From: Methanobacteriota archaeon | GTDB lineage: Archaea > Thermoplasmatota > Poseidoniia > Poseidoniales > Poseidoniaceae | Length of the DNA: 27,139 nucleotides | Reading direction: 5' to 3' | Assembly (NCBI GenBank): GCA_018649825.1 | Contig: JABIHC010000113.1 | Coordinates: forward strand, 1 to 27,139 | Part shown: piece after piece, positions 750 through 15,215 of the stretch | Layout: every line of letters begins with the position of its first letter | How positions within the stretch are numbered: position 1 is the first letter of the stretch | The notes under the pieces: generated by a model | Databases searched by the model: none | Told to the model about the DNA's origin: nothing | Seen by the model: the letters and a program-made list of their open reading frames with translations, nothing else | Made by a program: the position numbers and the translations under genes

Positions 750-1778
750 TTATTCCAATTCGGTTCGGACCAACATGAGTAATTCACCAAGCATATTCTG
801 GCCTTCGCCATCGATAGATTCACCCCAGAATGTATCGTTCGAGGTTGACTCAACAAGTCGTTTTGGGATGGTGCTAAGAAGAAGTTTAGCGAGTTCGGGG
901 TGTTGTGAAAATTTCCCCCGTAGGGCCTTCAGCATGACGTCTTCCTTTAGTTCCGCCCAATCCTCTCTCTGTAGATTTTTCATCTCTGTGGCAGTGTCTT
1001 TTGCAAGAGTCGGGGTTTTTGATAATCGAATCTTCTCTTTCAACTCTGGTTCAATGAATTTTTGGGCTTGGTAATAGTGTTCAACCGTCAGCCAATTGAC
1101 CCCCTCAATAAAGATACTGTGTGGGGAAAAATTAGAGAACTCGCCCCAAGGTTGGTCAGAGTGGTAGAATCGAATTTCGTCTTCATCTACGGGGATCTCA
1201 TCCAAGGGTAGTTGATGCCCAAGTTTTTGATTTTTCGTATGCAGATACGCTTCATTTTCTGGGCGGATATTTGGGTGGGTGTTTACAGATACAACCTCAA
1301 TGTCATTCATTTGCAGAAATTTGCGCTTTCGAGGGTTGTTTGAAATTAAGCGAACTGAAATAACTCCAAGAGATTTAAGAATATCAAGCGCAGAATCATA
1401 GTCTCTATTATCTTGTTCAAGGCCGAGATGTTCAAACGCTTCGACTGTATCTAAATCATCTGATTCCATGAGCCTCACTGCACGAATTTTGTTCGAAATA
1501 CCTTGCCCCCTTCCTTCTTGGTGCAGATGGATGATTATCCCTTCTCCTTCGATTGCTATCAGTTTCATTGATTCACGAAGTTGATCTGCACAATCACAGT
1601 CTTTTGCTCCGAATACTTCAGATGCCAAACAAGAAGAATGGATACGTAGAAGGGGATGTTTCCCTAAAGTGTTGACGTCCCCCCTGCTGATGAGGCGAAC
1701 GTCTTCGTCACCTGTATCATACATCCGAAAGTTTCCCACCGAGGTGGGAAGAGTGCACCAATTCTTCAGTTCAGACAT
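750..1778 (-). CDS. ribA: Bifunctional GTP cyclohydrolase II (RibA) fused to a NADAR/YbiA-type N-glycosidase domain
   Basis: The N-terminal ~195 aa align along their length with E. coli RibA: the zinc site HSSCLASEVFGAKDCDCADQL, then HQEGRGQGISNKIRA, then DTVEAFEHLGLEQDNRDY...ISNNPRKRKFL. The C-terminal ~140 aa (FYHSDQPWGEFSNFSPHSIFIEGVNWLTVEHYYQAQKF...WGESIDGEGQNMLGELLM) match the DUF1768/NADAR (YbiA) pattern. The start overlaps the stop of the upstream GT gene by 8 nt. Confidence 0.85.
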   Translation of the reverse strand: MSELKNWCTLPTSVGNFRMYDTGDEDVRLISRGDVNTLGKHPLLRIHSSCLASEVFGAKDCDCADQLRESMKLIAIEGEGIIIHLHQEGRGQGISNKIRAVRLMESDDLDTVEAFEHLGLEQDNRDYDSALDILKSLGVISVRLISNNPRKRKFLQMNDIEVVSVNTHPNIRPENEAYLHTKNQKLGHQLPLDEIPVDEDEIRFYHSDQPWGEFSNFSPHSIFIEGVNWLTVEHYYQAQKFIEPELKEKIRLSKTPTLAKDTATEMKNLQREDWAELKEDVMLKALRGKFSQHPELAKLLLSTIPKRLVESTSNDTFWGESIDGEGQNMLGELLMLVRTELE

Positions 1779-7857: not shown

Positions 7858-10317
7858 TCAATCCCTCCTTGGGATGAAGGCTGAGGCAATACCGGCTCCG
7901 CCAGCAAGTATCATTATCAAGCCAAAAATTGTGCCAAATCCGGCCTCTGGTCCAGCGGCTTCCGCCACATCATCAACGGTCAATTCTGCAGTTGTAATTG
8001 GCCCTGAAGCGACTACGGTTTCATCGACGATAGGATGGACTTGATACTGATGTATTCCGACTACTGTTGGTAAGTCAGTCCAAGTATTGCTGGATGTTTG
8101 ACCTAGGCTGATTCCGTCCCGATACACTGCCCAATTCTCAGCACTACCTTCCCAAGTTATCACAATACTGTTGCCGATTTTTTCGGCTCGCAAATCATCA
8201 GCACTCGGTGGAGGTGATGCCGATAAAGAAATTGTCGTATTGGAACTTGCCCCATTATCGTCATAGACGACCAGTAGGACATCGGTTGAAGTCGAGGTTG
8301 GGGCAATGGAAATTTCAAGACCACCATATTCCTGCCCATCAATGACCCAAAGTGCATCGCTGATTACTCCATCAACATCTATCGAAGTGCTCGCCGACAA
8401 TATTGTGGGCACACTAATCCAAGCCTCCGCCTCTGTAGTAATCTTGGCTTGAGGTTCAATGTTGGCAATGACATAGACTTGTGAGATTGTGAGGCCATCA
8501 ATAGAACCATCATTAGGAGTGGCTAAAAGGGTCCAGACATCGCTTGGAGCCAAGCGGTCAGCAGGTACGCTGGTAACATTACCCAAATTAGTAGCAAACC
8601 CATTTTTCAACCACACATAGGTGATACTTACGTCATCGCCATCCAGATCATATGTGATAATTGTGGGGGTTAGATTTGACAGTGAATCTGGATTGAACGG
8701 TCCGGAAATTAGCAGCGCCGGTTGGGCGCTAATGACTGTGAATGAGGCTGACATAATATTGGAATAATCAAGACCATCCCAAACCCTAGCATCAATTCGA
8801 ACGAAATCACCAATTGAATAATCAGCAAGTGCTGCGTTGAATGAGACGTTGTTCACATAAGTCGTCAAATCCAATTCAAGGGTGTCGTTGGGGTCGGCAT
8901 CGGAAAATTGCCAATCAAGATTGTAATCAAGGGCCATGGTCGATTGATTGGTGTCTATGTTGAAACTTTCAAGGACTGGGGGTGAATTGACGATATTTGT
9001 CGTGGCAGAAGTAAGCCATTCCGACCATGCTTCGCCATCATGAACTCGGACTTTAACAGACCAAAGTTGGCTCTTGGCAGTATGAGAGGTGGGTAAGGTA
9101 GCGGCGGTTATTGTGGGATATTCAGTGCCATTCAAGAACCATATTACCTCGGCCGATTCTTCACTATCACCGGCATCGGCATCACTACTAGTCCAAATAG
9201 CCACCATAGCAGTCGAGGTGTTGATAGTTCCTGGTGAGATGCTTACTGAGGACATTACTGGGGCGGTATTAGAACTGCCAATAGTCACCGATTGAATCGA
9301 AAACCATTGACTGGCATCTAAGCCGTCACTCGCCATTATTTCAGCATACCATACATCGCCGCCGCGCACCGCTACACTTGGCACAGTCAACTCACCATCA
9401 AAGGAGGATATGCGGGCTCCGTCAACATACCAACGAGTGTCGGAAATGGCCGCTGAATCACCACTGTCAGCATCATTAATATTCACAGAAAGGGTGAGGT
9501 CGTCCCCCTCTAGTGGTTGAGTTGGGTAAATAGATGCAGAAGAAATAGTTGGAGCAGAATTGAGGATGGTCTTGGTATTCGAATCAACGGAAATGCCGAA
9601 ATCTGCGCCATCAGAAGGAGTGACTGATGCATTCCAAATCTGACCTTTTGCTGTGCTGCCGGAGCCTACACTAGATTGGTCATTCAATGATGAAATTAAT
9701 GCCCCGTCACGATACCAGCGAATTTGAGTTCCCGATTCGGCATCGTTTTCAGCATCGGAATATGAGTAAGATAGGGTCAGCGTATCAGTAGTTGCTGGAT
9801 TTACTGGGCCGAGACTTAATGAGGATACACTCGGGGGTTGGTTAGCTTGCGTAGATTCTGTTGATTGGACCGAAGTACCACCTTTGCCATCACCAGTATT
9901 GGCGTTGTTATTATTGGCACCGATGACCATTAGGTCGAATGTCGCAGTGCCTGAACCCGATTGAGGGGCTGTCCAATCAACGGTCCAAGATGTCCCGCCG
10001 TTGCTTGAATGAGTAGCCGAATCGCCGGTGGAATTTACCTTTGCATAGGTGCTGGGATTAGAAAAAACGCCGATGTCAGCATCGAGCGAAAAACCTCCAT
10101 GATTGTATGATGTAGAGGTCATGGCGATATTCAAAGTGTAACTTGCACCTGGGTTGTAAGAATTTGGAACGCCGGTAAAGGTGAATTGAACGCCACCTGC
10201 ATAATGGCAAGAGCAACCGGTGCCACTGCCAAATTTACCGGTTTTTTTCCCCTCGATAGAGGCGGGAATTGTTGCCATTAAGAGCAAGATGGCCACGACC
10301 AATAATGTGCGTCTCAT
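7858..10317 (-). CDS. Large cell-surface protein: signal peptide, Reeler-like domain with CxCH motif, five tandem Ig-like repeats, PKD-like and Fn3-like domains, C-terminal membrane anchor
   Basis: The signal peptide is MRRTLLVVAILLLMATIPASIEG. The N-domain follows the Reeler motif order: GC35SC37H38...YNPGASYTLNIAM...GGFSLDAD.IGVF...SATHSS...WTVDWTAPQSGSGTATFDLMV. Residues 159-618 hold five ~90-aa repeats of the pattern N.(A/P)P....S(I/L).P..p...D.L(T)......D.D.(D)......(W)(Y/F)..G.......... G..W...V...DG. The C-terminus is AGFGTIFGLIMILAGGAGIASAFIPRRD. Confidence 0.8.
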   Translation of the reverse strand: MRRTLLVVAILLLMATIPASIEGKKTGKFGSGTGCSCHYAGGVQFTFTGVPNSYNPGASYTLNIAMTSTSYNHGGFSLDADIGVFSNPSTYAKVNSTGDSATHSSNGGTSWTVDWTAPQSGSGTATFDLMVIGANNNNANTGDGKGGTSVQSTESTQANQPPSVSSLSLGPVNPATTDTLTLSYSYSDAENDAESGTQIRWYRDGALISSLNDQSSVGSGSTAKGQIWNASVTPSDGADFGISVDSNTKTILNSAPTISSASIYPTQPLEGDDLTLSVNINDADSGDSAAISDTRWYVDGARISSFDGELTVPSVAVRGGDVWYAEIMASDGLDASQWFSIQSVTIGSSNTAPVMSSVSISPGTINTSTAMVAIWTSSDADAGDSEESAEVIWFLNGTEYPTITAATLPTSHTAKSQLWSVKVRVHDGEAWSEWLTSATTNIVNSPPVLESFNIDTNQSTMALDYNLDWQFSDADPNDTLELDLTTYVNNVSFNAALADYSIGDFVRIDARVWDGLDYSNIMSASFTVISAQPALLISGPFNPDSLSNLTPTIITYDLDGDDVSITYVWLKNGFATNLGNVTSVPADRLAPSDVWTLLATPNDGSIDGLTISQVYVIANIEPQAKITTEAEAWISVPTILSASTSIDVDGVISDALWVIDGQEYGGLEISIAPTSTSTDVLLVVYDDNGASSNTTISLSASPPPSADDLRAEKIGNSIVITWEGSAENWAVYRDGISLGQTSSNTWTDLPTVVGIHQYQVHPIVDETVVASGPITTAELTVDDVAEAAGPEAGFGTIFGLIMILAGGAGIASAFIPRRD

Positions 10318-11564: not shown

Positions 11565-11987
11565 TCACCACTGGGGCTTATTGAAAGCCTTAGGGTTGGC
11601 TACCTTCTCAATTTCCCGATTCCAAACGAGTTCACCGATGTCTCCATAAACATCTCCAAAAGGATCAACTTCCTCTGGTTCAGGTCTACTGTCCATATAT
11701 GACTTAACCCGCTCACGGAGTTCTGGTTTGAACCTCCAATAGTGAATTCTCCATTCGCGTCCATCCCAAAGAGTAGTTTCTTCTGATTCAGTAGTTAAGA
11801 GGTCATAATCTTGAAACATGTAGAATAGGTTACGGTCAGTTGGCTCAAGTGCATTGTCAATAATGCGCTCATAAAAACCGAAGAATCCAAGTGCGTGTTC
11901 TGCCATGCCGCTGGCGACATCATCCTCCATTTCCATATCAATATGCTGGCGTATTGCAAGCGTAAGTTCTGCCATAGACATTCCCAT
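11565..11987 (-). CDS. Hypothetical acidic cytoplasmic protein (140 aa)
   Basis: The ORF is clean, has no TM segment or signal peptide, and has a plausible globular sequence (..FFGFYERIIDNALEPTDRNLFYMFQDYDLLTTESEETTLWDGREWRIHYWRFKPELRERV..). It is transcribed divergently from the agmatinase gene. I cannot assign a family from memory. Confidence 0.55.
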   Translation of the reverse strand: MGMSMAELTLAIRQHIDMEMEDDVASGMAEHALGFFGFYERIIDNALEPTDRNLFYMFQDYDLLTTESEETTLWDGREWRIHYWRFKPELRERVKSYMDSRPEPEEVDPFGDVYGDIGELVWNREIEKVANPKAFNKPQW

Positions 11988-12145: not shown

Positions 12146-13114
12146 ATGTCTGTGTCAGAAGAGTTTGAAGAGGGCGCCTTCTTGGGCATTCGGGGTTGTA
12201 GGACTTCATTTGCCGCAGATTTTGCAGTTCTTTCTATTCCTTATGAACTCACAACTTCATACGGTCAAGGAACTGAAAATGGCCCTGCTGCGGCCATTAG
12301 CGCAAGTGCGCAAGTCGAGTTGTATGATGAGTTGTTGACCAATGAATTACCTTGCGGCGCCAAAATTTTCACTGCTCCTCCTTGGGATGGAGAGGGGGAT
12401 AATCTCAAAGAGCAACAAAAAGGAATATCAACTTATGTTGGAAGTAATGTTGAAGGTGGTGCATTTCCAATAATATTTGGTGGTGAACACGGAATCCTAC
12501 CAGCAGTACTCTCTGGTGTGAAAAATCATGAATTGCTATTAGGCGATTTGTCTAAATTGACTTTGGTTCAAATCGATGCGCATGCAGATTTACGTGATGA
12601 ATTGGGTGGCGAGCCAATGAGTCATGCTTGTGCGGCTCGTCGCTCATTAGATTTGGGTGTTGGAAAATTAATGCAACTTGGAGTAAGGGCTTATTGTCGA
12701 GAGGAAAAGGAGTTTATTGATTTGGATTCAAGAGTAACTACTTGGTTTGCGCGTGATGTACTTTCCTTGGCTAACTCAAGTGAGAAGTGGGAAGGATGGC
12801 TTACTGCATTGCAAAGCATAGAAGGCCCTGTTTGGTTGACCATTGATGTGGATGGGCTAGACCCTTGTTATGTGCCAAGTACAGGAACTCCGGTCCCAGG
12901 GGGTCTTTCTTTTTGGCAAGTGATTGAAACAATAGAGAAATTGTTTTCAAGCCAATCTGCACTAGTACTTGGCGTTGATATCAATGAAATTGTCCCTGAC
13001 CAAAATAATCACATTACTGAGTTCACTGCAGCAATGTTGGCAAAAAAGGTTGTCGCTGCACATATAGCAAATAGTCTCACACCCGATACAGAAGCGGATG
13101 TAAATGAAGCTTAA
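12146..13114 (+). CDS. speB: Agmatinase / ureohydrolase-family enzyme
   Basis: The arginase-fold Mn-binding motifs appear in order: IIFGGEHGI, LVQIDAHADLRDE, LTIDVDGLDPCYVPSTGTPVPGGLSF. The ORF track starts at TTG 12050, but ATG 12146 (MSVSEEFEEGAFLG...) gives a typical length of about 322 aa. Confidence 0.85.
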   Translation: MSVSEEFEEGAFLGIRGCRTSFAADFAVLSIPYELTTSYGQGTENGPAAAISASAQVELYDELLTNELPCGAKIFTAPPWDGEGDNLKEQQKGISTYVGSNVEGGAFPIIFGGEHGILPAVLSGVKNHELLLGDLSKLTLVQIDAHADLRDELGGEPMSHACAARRSLDLGVGKLMQLGVRAYCREEKEFIDLDSRVTTWFARDVLSLANSSEKWEGWLTALQSIEGPVWLTIDVDGLDPCYVPSTGTPVPGGLSFWQVIETIEKLFSSQSALVLGVDINEIVPDQNNHITEFTAAMLAKKVVAAHIANSLTPDTEADVNEA

Positions 13115-13131
13115 CTGCATGAGGTGAAAAG

Positions 13132-14541
13132 ATGAATCCACGCCCACTTGGACCTCAAGGAATTCATGAAATGCTTGACATTAGTGGTTTTGAGATTCCT
13201 CCGGAAGTTGGTGATGAAGGAGTTTGGATGCTCGCCCTTCTCCGCCAAGCAGTTGCCCAAAGTGGTGCTCGAGAAGTACATCATCATGTTGAATCATTTG
13301 ATGGGAGCATTAGTCCGAAGGGTTTTGCTGCGGTAGTATTGTTGGATGAAAGCCATGTAAGTGGGCATTGTTATAGTGATTTAGGAATTGTTGCTATTGA
13401 TGCCTTTACCTGCGGGGGAACGGACCCGAAGGTCATAACTGAATATTTGCTGAAAGAACTTCGGGCGGCCATCCCTTCCTTGCATGTTGAGCAGAGTCAG
13501 CGCGTGTCGCGTTTCCTTTCTACTAGTGCCGGAGATAATAATGCAAATACAGAGCAAGTAATGGGGGCTTCAAGATCTAGCGAAAGCATTCGGGACTTTA
13601 TCGAAGAGCATTATAGACATTTTAATGCAGGTTCCTTATCTGATGCAATAGTATCTCTTAGAGGTTTTTTAGCGGGCGATGGTAAATTGTTAATCACCCT
13701 TGCAGGGGCGATGAGTACTGCAGAAATAGGGCGGAGTCTAGCACCTCTTATTCGTGCTGGAAAGGTTGCAGGGATTTGTACGACTGGCGCCAATCTTGAG
13801 GAAGATATTTTCAATTTAATTGCTCATGACCATTACCAAAGAATCCCCAATTGGCGTTCCCTCACTGCAGAAGATGATGCTCAATTAGAGTCTCAAGGGA
13901 TGAATAGGGTGACAGATACTTGTATCCCCGAAGAAGAAGCAATTAGGTTATTAGAAAATAGTCTATTATCTCAGTGGAGGGAAGCAAGTGAGAAAGAAGT
14001 AAGTTTCTTCCCTCATGAATATCTATTCCAAATATTAAATAATTCTGAAATAGGCTTCCAAGCCGACCCGCAGAATTCTTGGTTACTGGCAGCAGCAGAG
14101 GTAGGTCTGCCTATTTGGACTCCTGGTTGGGAGGATAGCACAACTGGAAACATATTCGCCGCCGCATGCCTACGGAATGAAGTAAACAAAAATGTAGTCA
14201 AAGGGGGAGTGGATGCAATGATTTCACTCACTGATTGGTATCGCCGAAATAGCCAAAGTCAGGGTAGTGGTGCTGGATTGCTACAAGTTGGAGGGGGAAT
14301 TGCAGGTGATTTCCCAATCTGTGTCGTGCCTATGCTTCGCCAAGATTTGGGTGAAGATGTACCGCTTTGGAGTTGGTTCGCGCAGATTAGCGAAGCAACT
14401 ACCTCCTACGGCGGATACTCTGGGGCTCCACCAAATGAGAAAATTTCATGGGGTAAATTGTCAATTGACACGCCTCGTTTTATGATTGAATCTGATGCAA
14501 CAATCGTATTGCCCTTATTATTCACCGCCATTATAGAGTAA
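13132..14541 (+). CDS. Fusion protein: pyruvoyl-dependent decarboxylase (AdoMetDC/SpeH-type, possibly arginine decarboxylase) fused to a deoxyhypusine-synthase-like domain
   Basis: Residues 1-128 read GIHEMLDISGF...SGAREVHHHVESFDGSISPKGFAAVVLLDESHVSGHCYSDLGIVAIDAFTCGGTDP, i.e. the class-1 AdoMetDC fold with the E73-S74 self-cleavage site. Residues ~150-469 read ITLAGAMSTAEIG, ICTTGANLEEDIF, TPGWEDSTTGN, VGGGIAGDFP, EKISWGKL..IVLPLLF, which is the DHS motif order. An SD-like GAGGTGA precedes the ATG, and the gene starts 17 nt after the agmatinase stop. Confidence 0.85.
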   Translation: MNPRPLGPQGIHEMLDISGFEIPPEVGDEGVWMLALLRQAVAQSGAREVHHHVESFDGSISPKGFAAVVLLDESHVSGHCYSDLGIVAIDAFTCGGTDPKVITEYLLKELRAAIPSLHVEQSQRVSRFLSTSAGDNNANTEQVMGASRSSESIRDFIEEHYRHFNAGSLSDAIVSLRGFLAGDGKLLITLAGAMSTAEIGRSLAPLIRAGKVAGICTTGANLEEDIFNLIAHDHYQRIPNWRSLTAEDDAQLESQGMNRVTDTCIPEEEAIRLLENSLLSQWREASEKEVSFFPHEYLFQILNNSEIGFQADPQNSWLLAAAEVGLPIWTPGWEDSTTGNIFAAACLRNEVNKNVVKGGVDAMISLTDWYRRNSQSQGSGAGLLQVGGGIAGDFPICVVPMLRQDLGEDVPLWSWFAQISEATTSYGGYSGAPPNEKISWGKLSIDTPRFMIESDATIVLPLLFTAIIE

Positions 14542-14573: not shown

Positions 14574-14642
14574 CTTACGCGGTGTTAGGAATTATTGAGT
14601 AATTCACCGCCGCCCTCAATAAGAAGTTCTCATTGGGCTTGT

Positions 14643-15215
14643 ATGATGGCACTTGTGGTATTCCTCGTTACCTTCCCAAATGAAGGTTCTGCGAAAACGA
14701 TATCTCACTCAGTTATTGATGCAGGGCTTGCCGCTTGTATACTCCGTTCACCAGTTACTTCTGTGTTCAATTGGCAAGGGAAAATGGAAGAAGAATCTGA
14801 AATAATGCTGCTTTTTAAGGTGCCACAAGAAAGTGCTGAAGAATTGCGGGACCATATTGAAGATATACACCCATATGATAATCCTGCTATTTTAGAACTT
14901 GAAGCCAATGCAGGTCAATTGTATGAAGACTGGGCGAAGAAACAAACCAATCCAGTTTTCTCAGCAAAGGCCAATTCAAATAATAAAATGGGTGATACTA
15001 TTTCCCAAGTATCGGATATATTTGGCGGTCAAAATCCTCATGTGGATGTGGAAGAAAGTGATATGTCTGAGGCTGAATCAATTGCATTCATTAAGGAATT
15101 AATGGAAGGCATGGATGAACTTGAAGAGATTGAGGATTTGTTGGCTGATACGGGGGAAGAGGGGGAGTCTGAAGTCAAAGAAAAACGAGGGTGGTTTTCG
15201 CTTGGCAAGAAGTAA
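14643..15215 (+). CDS. cutA: CutA1 divalent-cation tolerance protein homolog with a ~85-aa acidic C-terminal extension
   Basis: The CutA core is ALVVFLVTFPNEGSAKTISHSVIDAGLAACILRSPVTSVFNWQGKMEEESEIMLLFKV...IEDIHPYDNPAILELEANAG..YEDW. The apparent N-terminal hydrophobic stretch is the first CutA beta-strand, so ATG 14643 is preferred over TTG 14595. The tail is Glu/Asp-rich and ends KRGWFSLGKK. Confidence 0.7.
   Translation: MMALVVFLVTFPNEGSAKTISHSVIDAGLAACILRSPVTSVFNWQGKMEEESEIMLLFKVPQESAEELRDHIEDIHPYDNPAILELEANAGQLYEDWAKKQTNPVFSAKANSNNKMGDTISQVSDIFGGQNPHVDVEESDMSEAESIAFIKELMEGMDELEEIEDLLADTGEEGESEVKEKRGWFSLGKK

Follow-up and report, generated by a model that had tools for sequence, protein, structure and literature searches.

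We analyzed a 27,139-nucleotide (nt) stretch of DNA from a Methanobacteriota archaeon (GTDB lineage Archaea; Thermoplasmatota; Poseidoniia; Poseidoniales; Poseidoniaceae), which comprises positions 1 to 27,139 of the forward strand of contig JABIHC010000113.1 (GenBank assembly GCA_018649825.1) and is referred to here as the window. Our subject is a pair of adjacent genes within it, namely, a gene for a SpeB-like ureohydrolase and, directly downstream, a single open reading frame (ORF) of 469 amino acids (aa) that combines two enzyme domains and that we designate SpeDA::SpeY (Table 1). The N-terminal domain belongs to the family of self-processing S-adenosylmethionine decarboxylases (AdoMetDC), and the C-terminal domain has the fold of deoxyhypusine synthase (DHS). 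The joining of these two modules, as read from the sequence in an original prediction made on this DNA, was confirmed by Pfam, which finds AdoMet_dc (PF02675) at residues 31-114 (E value 1.6e-15) and DS (PF01916) at residues 164-465 (E value 1.2e-39). The linker that had been proposed between them also proved real. In an AlphaFold model built with 39 fused homologs as input (mean predicted local distance difference test [pLDDT] score, 87.5), residues 132-149 score below 50 and are flanked by two domains with pLDDT above 90. The stretch that separates the SpeDA core from the point where the conserved part of the DS domain begins varies from 14 to 49 residues in the 39 aligned fused homologs.

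The upstream gene product matches the Pfam family Arginase (PF00491; E value 4.4e-49) and scores just above the cutoff of the NCBIfam agmatinase model TIGR01230 (185.2 bits versus 174.3), in agreement with the earlier description of an arginase-fold agmatinase gene at this position. The binuclear-metal ligand motifs GGEHG, DAHAD, and DVDGLDP are all present in its translation. The 17-nt spacer between its stop codon and the start codon of the fusion gene fits co-transcription of the two.

Table 1. Coordinates of the speB-like gene, the SpeDA::SpeY gene, and their parts in the window
Feature	Coordinates	Strand	Basis or remark
speB-like ureohydrolase, 322 aa	12146..13114	+	Pfam Arginase, TIGR01230 agmatinase; best-supported start 12146
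Spacer between speB stop and fusion ATG, 17 nt	13115..13131	+	ORF coordinates
SpeDA::SpeY single ORF, 469 aa	13132..14541	+	Decarboxylase domain, linker, and DS-fold domain
SpeDA domain, aa 1-128	13132..13515	+	Class 1b AdoMetDC fold, Pfam AdoMet_dc
Predicted autocatalytic cleavage site, Glu73-Ser74	13348..13353	+	ESH aligned to the processing site of T. maritima AdoMetDC
Interdomain linker, aa 129-150 (22 aa, disordered), LSTSAGDNNANTEQVMGASRSS...	13516..13581	+	Low pLDDT, variable in homologs
SpeY-type DS-fold domain, aa 151-469	13582..14538	+	Pfam DS, Foldseek, neighbor-joining grouping
Gly392-Asp393, positions of human Lys287-His288	14305..14310	+	Alignments
E436-K-I-S-W440-G-K442, region of human Glu323, Trp327, and Lys329	14437..14457	+	Alignments; Lys442 at nt 14455-14457

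An identical 469-aa protein is encoded, with the same neighboring genes, by at least 22 contigs that were assembled independently from different samples, and it also occurs in several NCBI metagenome-assembled genomes (MAGs) labeled Euryarchaeota or Methanobacteriota archaeon. Moreover, the two-domain architecture is common to at least 86 clusters (defined at the 90% identity level), at 48-83% identity. Because of these independent contigs and of the many clusters with the same architecture, we conclude that the fusion is genuine and not an assembly artifact. Ser74, His75, His79, Cys94, Gly392, and Asp393 do not vary among the 39 fused homologs, and Lys442 is kept in 38, the exception being one C-terminally truncated sequence. 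No description of a SpeDA-SpeY fusion was found in Li et al. 2023, in Li et al. 2026, or in a full-text literature search, which agrees with the original impression that it is uncharacterized, and the single-polypeptide architecture may be new.

Archaeal loci with speDA directly upstream of speY number 12, the window included. Of these, eight carry the pair as separate genes and four as a fusion, and speB was detected just upstream of speDA in seven of the 12. In the unfused sister lineages, speDA and speY are 9-40 nt apart. A second fused lineage, with a protein of 431 aa, has the same synteny as the window: a DUF6015 gene, speB, the fusion, and then genes for peptidases M14 and M17. In a neighbor-joining (NJ) tree of the SpeY domain, the archaeal fused forms are monophyletic in 0 of 200 bootstraps and the eukaryotic fused forms are placed elsewhere, which suggests repeated fusion or fission, although neighbor joining is a weak basis for such a claim.

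Related forms of these genes differ in several respects. Eukaryote-derived sequences, one of them from a dinoflagellate transcriptome (EukProt EP00746), carry the same SpeDA::SpeY fusion; all four have Ala-Ser, not Glu-Ser, at the pyruvoyl processing site, and one has an N-terminal extension of ~100 aa that resembles a targeting sequence. A 756-aa protein (P0148) consists of an N-terminal presequence, SpeDA, an insert of ~250 aa with a motif like that of SAM-dependent methyltransferases (LLEVGGGPTLYQLL), and a SpeY domain of the same type as that in the window, a layout that may point to a polyamine product bearing a methyl group or some other modification. In one Poseidoniales lineage, unfused speDA and speY are separated by 9 nt, with an aminotransferase gene upstream and no speB within 8-10 kb; here, either the gene for the guanidino hydrolase must be located in another part of the genome or the pathway ends in a different product.

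Active-site residues and relatives of the two domains

The original prediction held that the DHS-like module lacks its catalytic lysine, because Gly392 stands where the lysine of the GGGVVKHH segment of DHS, taken to be human Lys329, was expected. When human DHS is numbered by phmmer alignment and by the full sequence in the supplement of Kobayashi et al. 2024, this segment extends from G283 to K287-H288-H289, whereas Lys329 is the lysine of S326-W327-G328-K329. This numbering matches that of the residues given in structural papers (Asp243, His288, Asn292, Asp316, Glu323, Trp327, and Lys329). A shift in the by-eye alignment was considered as the source of the error and rejected: VGGGIAGDF does align with GGGVVKHH, and it was the residue number that was wrong, the lysine at that place being Lys287. 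The search for a further lysine had also stopped at "NEK" and overlooked the next one, five residues on. In phmmer and MAFFT alignments, Lys442 in the motif I438-S439-W440-G441-K442 pairs with human Lys329, and the phmmer pairing holds against archaeal, Trichomonas, and human DHS. All 49 examined members of the clade described below retain Lys442, and Trp440 (Trp327 in human DHS) and Glu436 (Glu323) are invariant as well. A proper alignment thus places a conserved lysine at the catalytic position, and the claim of its loss falls; the catalytic lysine is in place, and there is no call for a relocated nucleophile. Gly392 and Asp393, which stand for Lys287 and His288, are likewise invariant in these 49 sequences.

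Asp243, Asp316, and His288, which anchor spermidine in DHS and in plant homospermidine synthase (HSS), are all replaced in the fusion protein: Asp243 by Asn (Phe or Met in characterized SpeY enzymes), Asp316 by Tyr (Leu in characterized SpeY), and His288 by Asp (Asn in characterized SpeY). Ser105-Asn106 is replaced by Gly-Ala (Gly-Ser/Ala in characterized SpeY), Asn292 by Val, and Asp313 by Tyr. Glu136/137, Asp238, Glu323, and Trp327 of human DHS are kept. At positions 287 and 288, DHS has Lys-His, and both CdmS of Thermus thermophilus and the SpeY of Cylindrospermum have Lys-Asn. In CdmS, the counterparts of Lys442 and Glu436, Lys299 and Glu293, have been assigned roles in catalysis and guanidino binding (PMC10981699). 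His288 serves in DHS as a proton acceptor and donor (PMC7226451), and one may speculate that Asp393 takes over this acid/base role. Taken together, positions 287, 288, and 316 separate three types within the DS family: Lys-His-Asp in DHS, Lys-Asn-Leu in the Thermus and cyanobacterial SpeY enzymes, and Gly-Asp-Tyr in the type found here (at least 588 genomes among the matches listed). This provides a simple sequence rule for telling the three apart, and the explicit Gly-Asp/Tyr signature may be new.

The top Foldseek matches of the C-terminal domain are DHS structures (probability, 1.00; target-normalized template modeling [TM] scores, 0.70-0.78), but the domain is only 20-26% identical to DHS and does not reach the DHS equivalog models of NCBIfam (NF002630, the best, 108.6 versus a cutoff of 364; TIGR00321, 97.9 versus 304). 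Sequences with the motif GGGI[AS]GD form a clade that is monophyletic in 200 of 200 NJ bootstraps; together with CdmS and CsSpeY, this clade is split from human, Arabidopsis, and Haloferax DHS in 199 of 200. We regard it, by its sequences, as a distinct SpeY type outside the current NCBIfam equivalogs, and we infer that the C-terminal domain is an NAD-dependent enzyme for the homocoupling of agmatine, that is, a putative synthase of N1,N9-bis(guanidino)homospermidine (G44G, also known as caldomycin or diagmatine).

This Gly-Asp (GD) type is widespread. We scanned one genome per GTDB species for the motifs [IVL]GGGI[AS]GD[FW] and xT[GA]ANLEE[DS], and at least 600 stretches matched; 588 of these proved to be relatives. 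The top 80 of these at least 588 relatives are mostly from Bacteria (54-60% identity) and include Bacteroidota (e.g., Sphingobacterium allocomposti, Hymenobacter translucens, and Edaphocola flava), Caldilineaceae, Bdellovibrionota, Acidobacteriota, Gemmatimonadota, Planctomycetota, and Verrucomicrobiota. The gene order is PvlArgDC, Arginase, DS in one genome of the Caldilineaceae and alanine racemase (AR)-fold decarboxylase, Arginase, DS in one of the Flavobacteriales. Cluster layouts of these types have been published for Caldilinea aerophila and Winogradskyella algicola (PMC13625781). The DS proteins of these bacterial clusters are 59-60% identical to the domain in the window and have the same active-site signature at 15 of 16 positions. 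In a search of 1.84 billion representatives, the best 150 matches all fell within the same clade. Plasmid collections yielded only four haloarchaeal DHS genes (~25% identity), and phage collections yielded no match.

The decarboxylase domain has the predicted processing motif LLDE73-S74H and the FTCGG motif at residues 92-96, both noted in the original prediction. Its score against the AdoMetDC equivalog TIGR03330 is below the cutoff (55.8 versus 75.65). It is 55-58% identical to stand-alone speD homologs of 120-147 aa from Marine Group II archaea (AIF20807, DAC25352, and DAC25276), which are sibling entries, from the same fosmid and MAG collections, of the assayed proteins AIF02979 and DAC51064. 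The latter two act on arginine but do not decarboxylate AdoMet, ornithine, or lysine; AdoMetDC homologs encoded in clusters with speY are arginine decarboxylases and have been named SpeDA, and they include the two from Marine Group II archaea, whose genes are "clustered with speB and speY" (PMC10407285). No aminopropyltransferase (SpeE-like) gene was found in the window or in the gene lists of related loci. The N-terminal domain is thus probably an L-arginine decarboxylase in which the AdoMetDC fold has changed function, as its sequence relationships indicate. The earlier suggestion of a recruited arginine decarboxylase is borne out to this extent by the activity of the Marine Group II enzymes on arginine.

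A proposed arginine-to-homospermidine pathway

Three papers account for parts of the locus. Kobayashi et al. showed that CdmS couples two agmatine molecules and that a ureohydrolase then releases homospermidine; in CdmS, the catalytic lysine is conserved as Lys299 (equivalent to Lys329), and Asp243 and Asp316 are replaced by hydrophobic residues (PMC10981699). Li et al. 2026 found that six phylogenetically diverse bacterial SpeY enzymes all make G44G, whereas eukaryotic DHS does not; the SpeY enzymes of C. aerophila and W. algicola produced G44G in Escherichia coli, and the SpeB enzymes of these bacteria cleaved G44G and not agmatine (PMC13625781). A speB-speDA-speY cluster of Marine Group II archaea has also been published (PMC10407285). 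Because these papers account for its parts, we read the window as a form of the published Marine Group II cluster in which speDA and speY share one frame, and we consider it likely that the locus encodes a compact arginine-to-homospermidine pathway of a planktonic archaeon of the Marine Group II (Poseidoniales) type. Published work already covers the enzyme families, their pathway, and the gene cluster in archaea; the sole new element is the speDA-speY fusion.

In the proposed mechanism, the N-terminal domain would cleave itself between Glu73 and Ser74, converting Ser74 to a pyruvoyl group and leaving a beta chain of 73 aa and a pyruvoyl alpha chain that runs on into the SpeY domain. The pyruvoyl SpeDA domain would decarboxylate L-arginine to agmatine. 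The DS-fold domain would then oxidize one agmatine with NAD, hold the 4-guanidinobutyl moiety as an imine on Lys442, and transfer it onto the amino group of another agmatine; reduction would give G44G. Finally, the SpeB-like ureohydrolase would strip both urea groups to yield sym-homospermidine. Of this scheme, the two-domain architecture and its recurrence, the conserved catalytic residues, the placement in the clade, and the gene order are observed, and the reaction steps are drawn from characterized relatives, with self-cleavage and decarboxylation based on orthology and coupling based on homology, the active-site signature, and gene context. By analogy with the characterized systems, we propose that the window speB product is such a G44G ("diagmatine") ureohydrolase that finishes homospermidine synthesis. 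A speB-like gene recurs upstream of speDA/speY in related archaeal loci, and the identity of the window SpeB to the SpeB proteins of related bacterial clusters is just 28-38%. The fusion would tether the alpha chain of the decarboxylase to the coupling enzyme; its benefit, on which we can only speculate, might be a fixed stoichiometry or the local delivery of agmatine.

Several observations weigh against this interpretation. The SpeY enzymes with tested activity are bacterial only, and the C-terminal domain is ~27% identical to the two SpeY sequences compared (CdmS and CsSpeY) and scores far below the NCBIfam SpeY equivalogs (117.5 versus a cutoff of 450 and 84.7 versus 500). It has Asp rather than Asn at position 288 and Gly at position 287, so details of substrate or mechanism could differ. 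That the SpeY enzymes tested from C. aerophila and W. algicola belong to the GD type is deduced from relatives of the same families with the same gene layout; a homolog search seeded with a Caldilineaceae SpeY gave matches of at least 83% identity, which were MAG or unnamed proteins, and no Caldilinea aerophila entry. Likewise, the N-terminal domain is tied to the assayed AIF02979 and DAC51064 via their sibling entries, not by direct identity. The upstream gene is labeled agmatinase by TIGR01230, and true hydrolysis of agmatine would compete with SpeY for its substrate.

The main outcome of the analysis is a correction: the catalytic lysine has not been lost, and there is no new chemistry to invoke. 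If the proposed pathway is correct, the locus has further implications. The fusion is a "Rosetta stone" link that places an AdoMetDC-derived arginine decarboxylase and a DHS-like enzyme on consecutive steps in abundant marine archaea, and it bears on the question, open in 2026, of whether archaea have agmatine-dependent DHS homologs. The fused gene also offers a single construct for the conversion of arginine to G44G. Proteins of the clade appear in public databases as "deoxyhypusine synthase" and "S-adenosylmethionine decarboxylase," and both names are probably functionally wrong for it; metabolic reconstructions of Marine Group II that use them would wrongly derive spermidine synthesis and hypusination from this locus.

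Alternative explanations and neighboring genes

We considered whether the locus instead serves agmatine-dependent deoxyhypusination, in which the 4-guanidinobutyl group would be transferred to the lysine of archaeal initiation factor 5A (aIF5A) and trimmed by the SpeB-like enzyme, alone or beside homospermidine synthesis. Prunetti et al. favor such chemistry for haloarchaeal DHS and an essential agmatinase-like gene, and they report that Lys329 but not His288 is conserved in those DHS proteins (PMC5178350); the fusion protein, too, lacks His288 and keeps Lys329. Being an archaeon, the host must modify aIF5A, and tblastn searches with human, plant, Thermus, and cyanobacterial queries found only one DS-family gene per locus, and no canonical DHS, in the window and 87 loci. 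Set against this is the abundance of the clade, with an active-site signature identical at 15 of 16 positions, in Bacteria. Bacteria have elongation factor P (EF-P) and no aIF5A. The same fusion also occurs in eukaryotic transcriptomes, and no gene with an eIF-5a domain lies within 10 kb in the window lineage and two other archaeal lineages, whereas, in Euryarchaeota, the gene for the agmatinase-like protein of the Haloferax model is found in clusters with aIF5A (PMC5178350). Furthermore, the DHS of Haloferax gibbonsii groups with eukaryotic DHS (199 of 200 bootstraps) and keeps K287-H288-H289. On balance, we think a role in hypusination unlikely, and the originally proposed hypusination module with a relocated nucleophile finds no support. 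A narrower version, in which the fused enzyme is the only DS-family enzyme of the cell and modifies aIF5A besides making homospermidine, appears to us quite improbable. If true, this would amount to a naturally occurring hypusination module with three activities that does not depend on spermidine, and it would lend direct support to the unproven Haloferax model; a literature search for Poseidoniales with hypusine or homospermidine returned nothing beyond Li et al. 2023.

Two further explanations concern the nature of the fused protein itself. Its N-terminal domain could be a true AdoMetDC, with the DS domain performing a transfer that depends on decarboxylated AdoMet or spermidine, e.g., like that of plant HSS, as part of a new route. 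The family placement in Pfam and NCBIfam, the presence of all processing and catalytic residues, and the public name of the stand-alone homologs, "S-adenosylmethionine decarboxylase," would be in keeping with this, but the score stays under the AdoMetDC equivalog cutoff, and Marine Group II homologs failed to rescue spermidine synthesis in an E. coli ΔspeD strain and were active on arginine only (PMC10407285). The failure to find an aminopropyltransferase gene in the window or in the gene lists of related loci, the replacement of all three spermidine anchors, and the production of G44G by all tested SpeY enzymes and not by eukaryotic DHS (PMC13625781) also make a true AdoMetDC with a spermidine-type transfer highly unlikely. 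The original idea of a recruitment of the DHS-like domain to another polyamine transfer was right in kind, but the route is not new, as that from agmatine through G44G to homospermidine is published. Finally, because the separate genes of sister lineages lie so close together, a single sequencing error (or, more broadly, a lost stop codon, a frameshift, or a chimeric assembly) could mimic a fusion of what are in reality two genes, or the frame could be an inactive relic. We give this next to no chance: the product is identical on contigs and in MAGs of independent origin, the fused orthologs have diverged from one another with a varying linker while both domains are conserved and the catalytic residues invariant, and both domains are confidently modeled by AlphaFold.

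The putative homospermidine locus is flanked by genes of other families. The DUF6015 gene (11565..11987, minus strand) lies divergently upstream of speB, as it does in the 431-aa fused lineage. Directly downstream of the fusion is a CutA1-domain gene (14595..15215, plus strand) whose product has a highly acidic C-terminal tail of ~90 aa; it occupies the same place in three of the loci compared and is not found there in the 431-aa fused lineage. Farther away, the window encodes an 819-aa secreted protein (7858..10317, minus strand) with repeated modules of ~90 aa and a C-terminal hydrophobic anchor (...GFGTIFGLIMILAGGAGIASAFIPRRD), for which no Pfam match is on record, and one ORF (750..1778, minus strand) that combines GTP cyclohydrolase II, of the riboflavin pathway, with a NADAR domain.

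Comparison with known polyamine systems

The closest known system is the Marine Group II cluster represented by fosmid KM3_15_H06 and Candidatus Poseidoniales isolate 70165 (PMC10407285), which comes from the same kind of organism and matches the locus in the identity and order of its three genes and in the inferred product. It differs in that speDA and speY are clustered genes there and a single ORF with a 22-aa linker here. The bacterial ADC-speB-speY clusters, where ADC denotes an arginine decarboxylase (PMC13625781), have similar layouts in family-level relatives, with DS proteins 59-60% identical to the domain in the window. Their partner decarboxylase is PvlArgDC or an AR-fold pyridoxal phosphate (PLP) enzyme and is unfused, whereas the partner is a fused SpeDA here. 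CdmS of T. thermophilus (TTHA1570) and the SpeY enzymes of Cylindrospermum and Anabaena share with the C-terminal domain the DS fold, the catalytic lysine (Lys299 in CdmS), the equivalent of Glu323, the loss of Asp243, Asp316, and His288, and a chemistry of agmatine homocoupling followed by a ureohydrolase. They are ~27% identical to it and have Lys-Asn rather than Gly-Asp at positions 287/288 and Leu rather than Tyr at position 316; unlike them, the domain in the window keeps Glu136-Glu137, as DHS does.

Canonical DHS (EC 2.5.1.46) has the same fold and the same Asp238, Glu136/137, Glu323, and Trp327, and presumably the same NAD-dependent enzyme-imine chemistry on the lysine of SWGK. The domain described here differs from it in lacking His288, Lys287, Asp243, Asp313, Asp316, and Asn292, in having no linkage to aIF5A, and in belonging to a mostly bacterial clade. 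The Haloferax system of DHS, agmatinase-like protein, and aIF5A (PMC5178350) resembles the locus in combining an archaeal DS-family gene with an arginase-fold gene and in its proposed use of agmatine, but it clusters with aIF5A, its protein is of the DHS type, and its acceptor would be a protein lysine rather than, as proposed here, a second agmatine. With respect to architecture, the nearest parallel is SpeD1-SpeD2, a fusion of AdoMetDC and ornithine decarboxylase (Li et al. 2023), in which a self-processing pyruvoyl domain is likewise fused to the next polyamine enzyme; the partner is a second pyruvoyl domain in that protein and an NAD-dependent DS-fold enzyme in SpeDA::SpeY.

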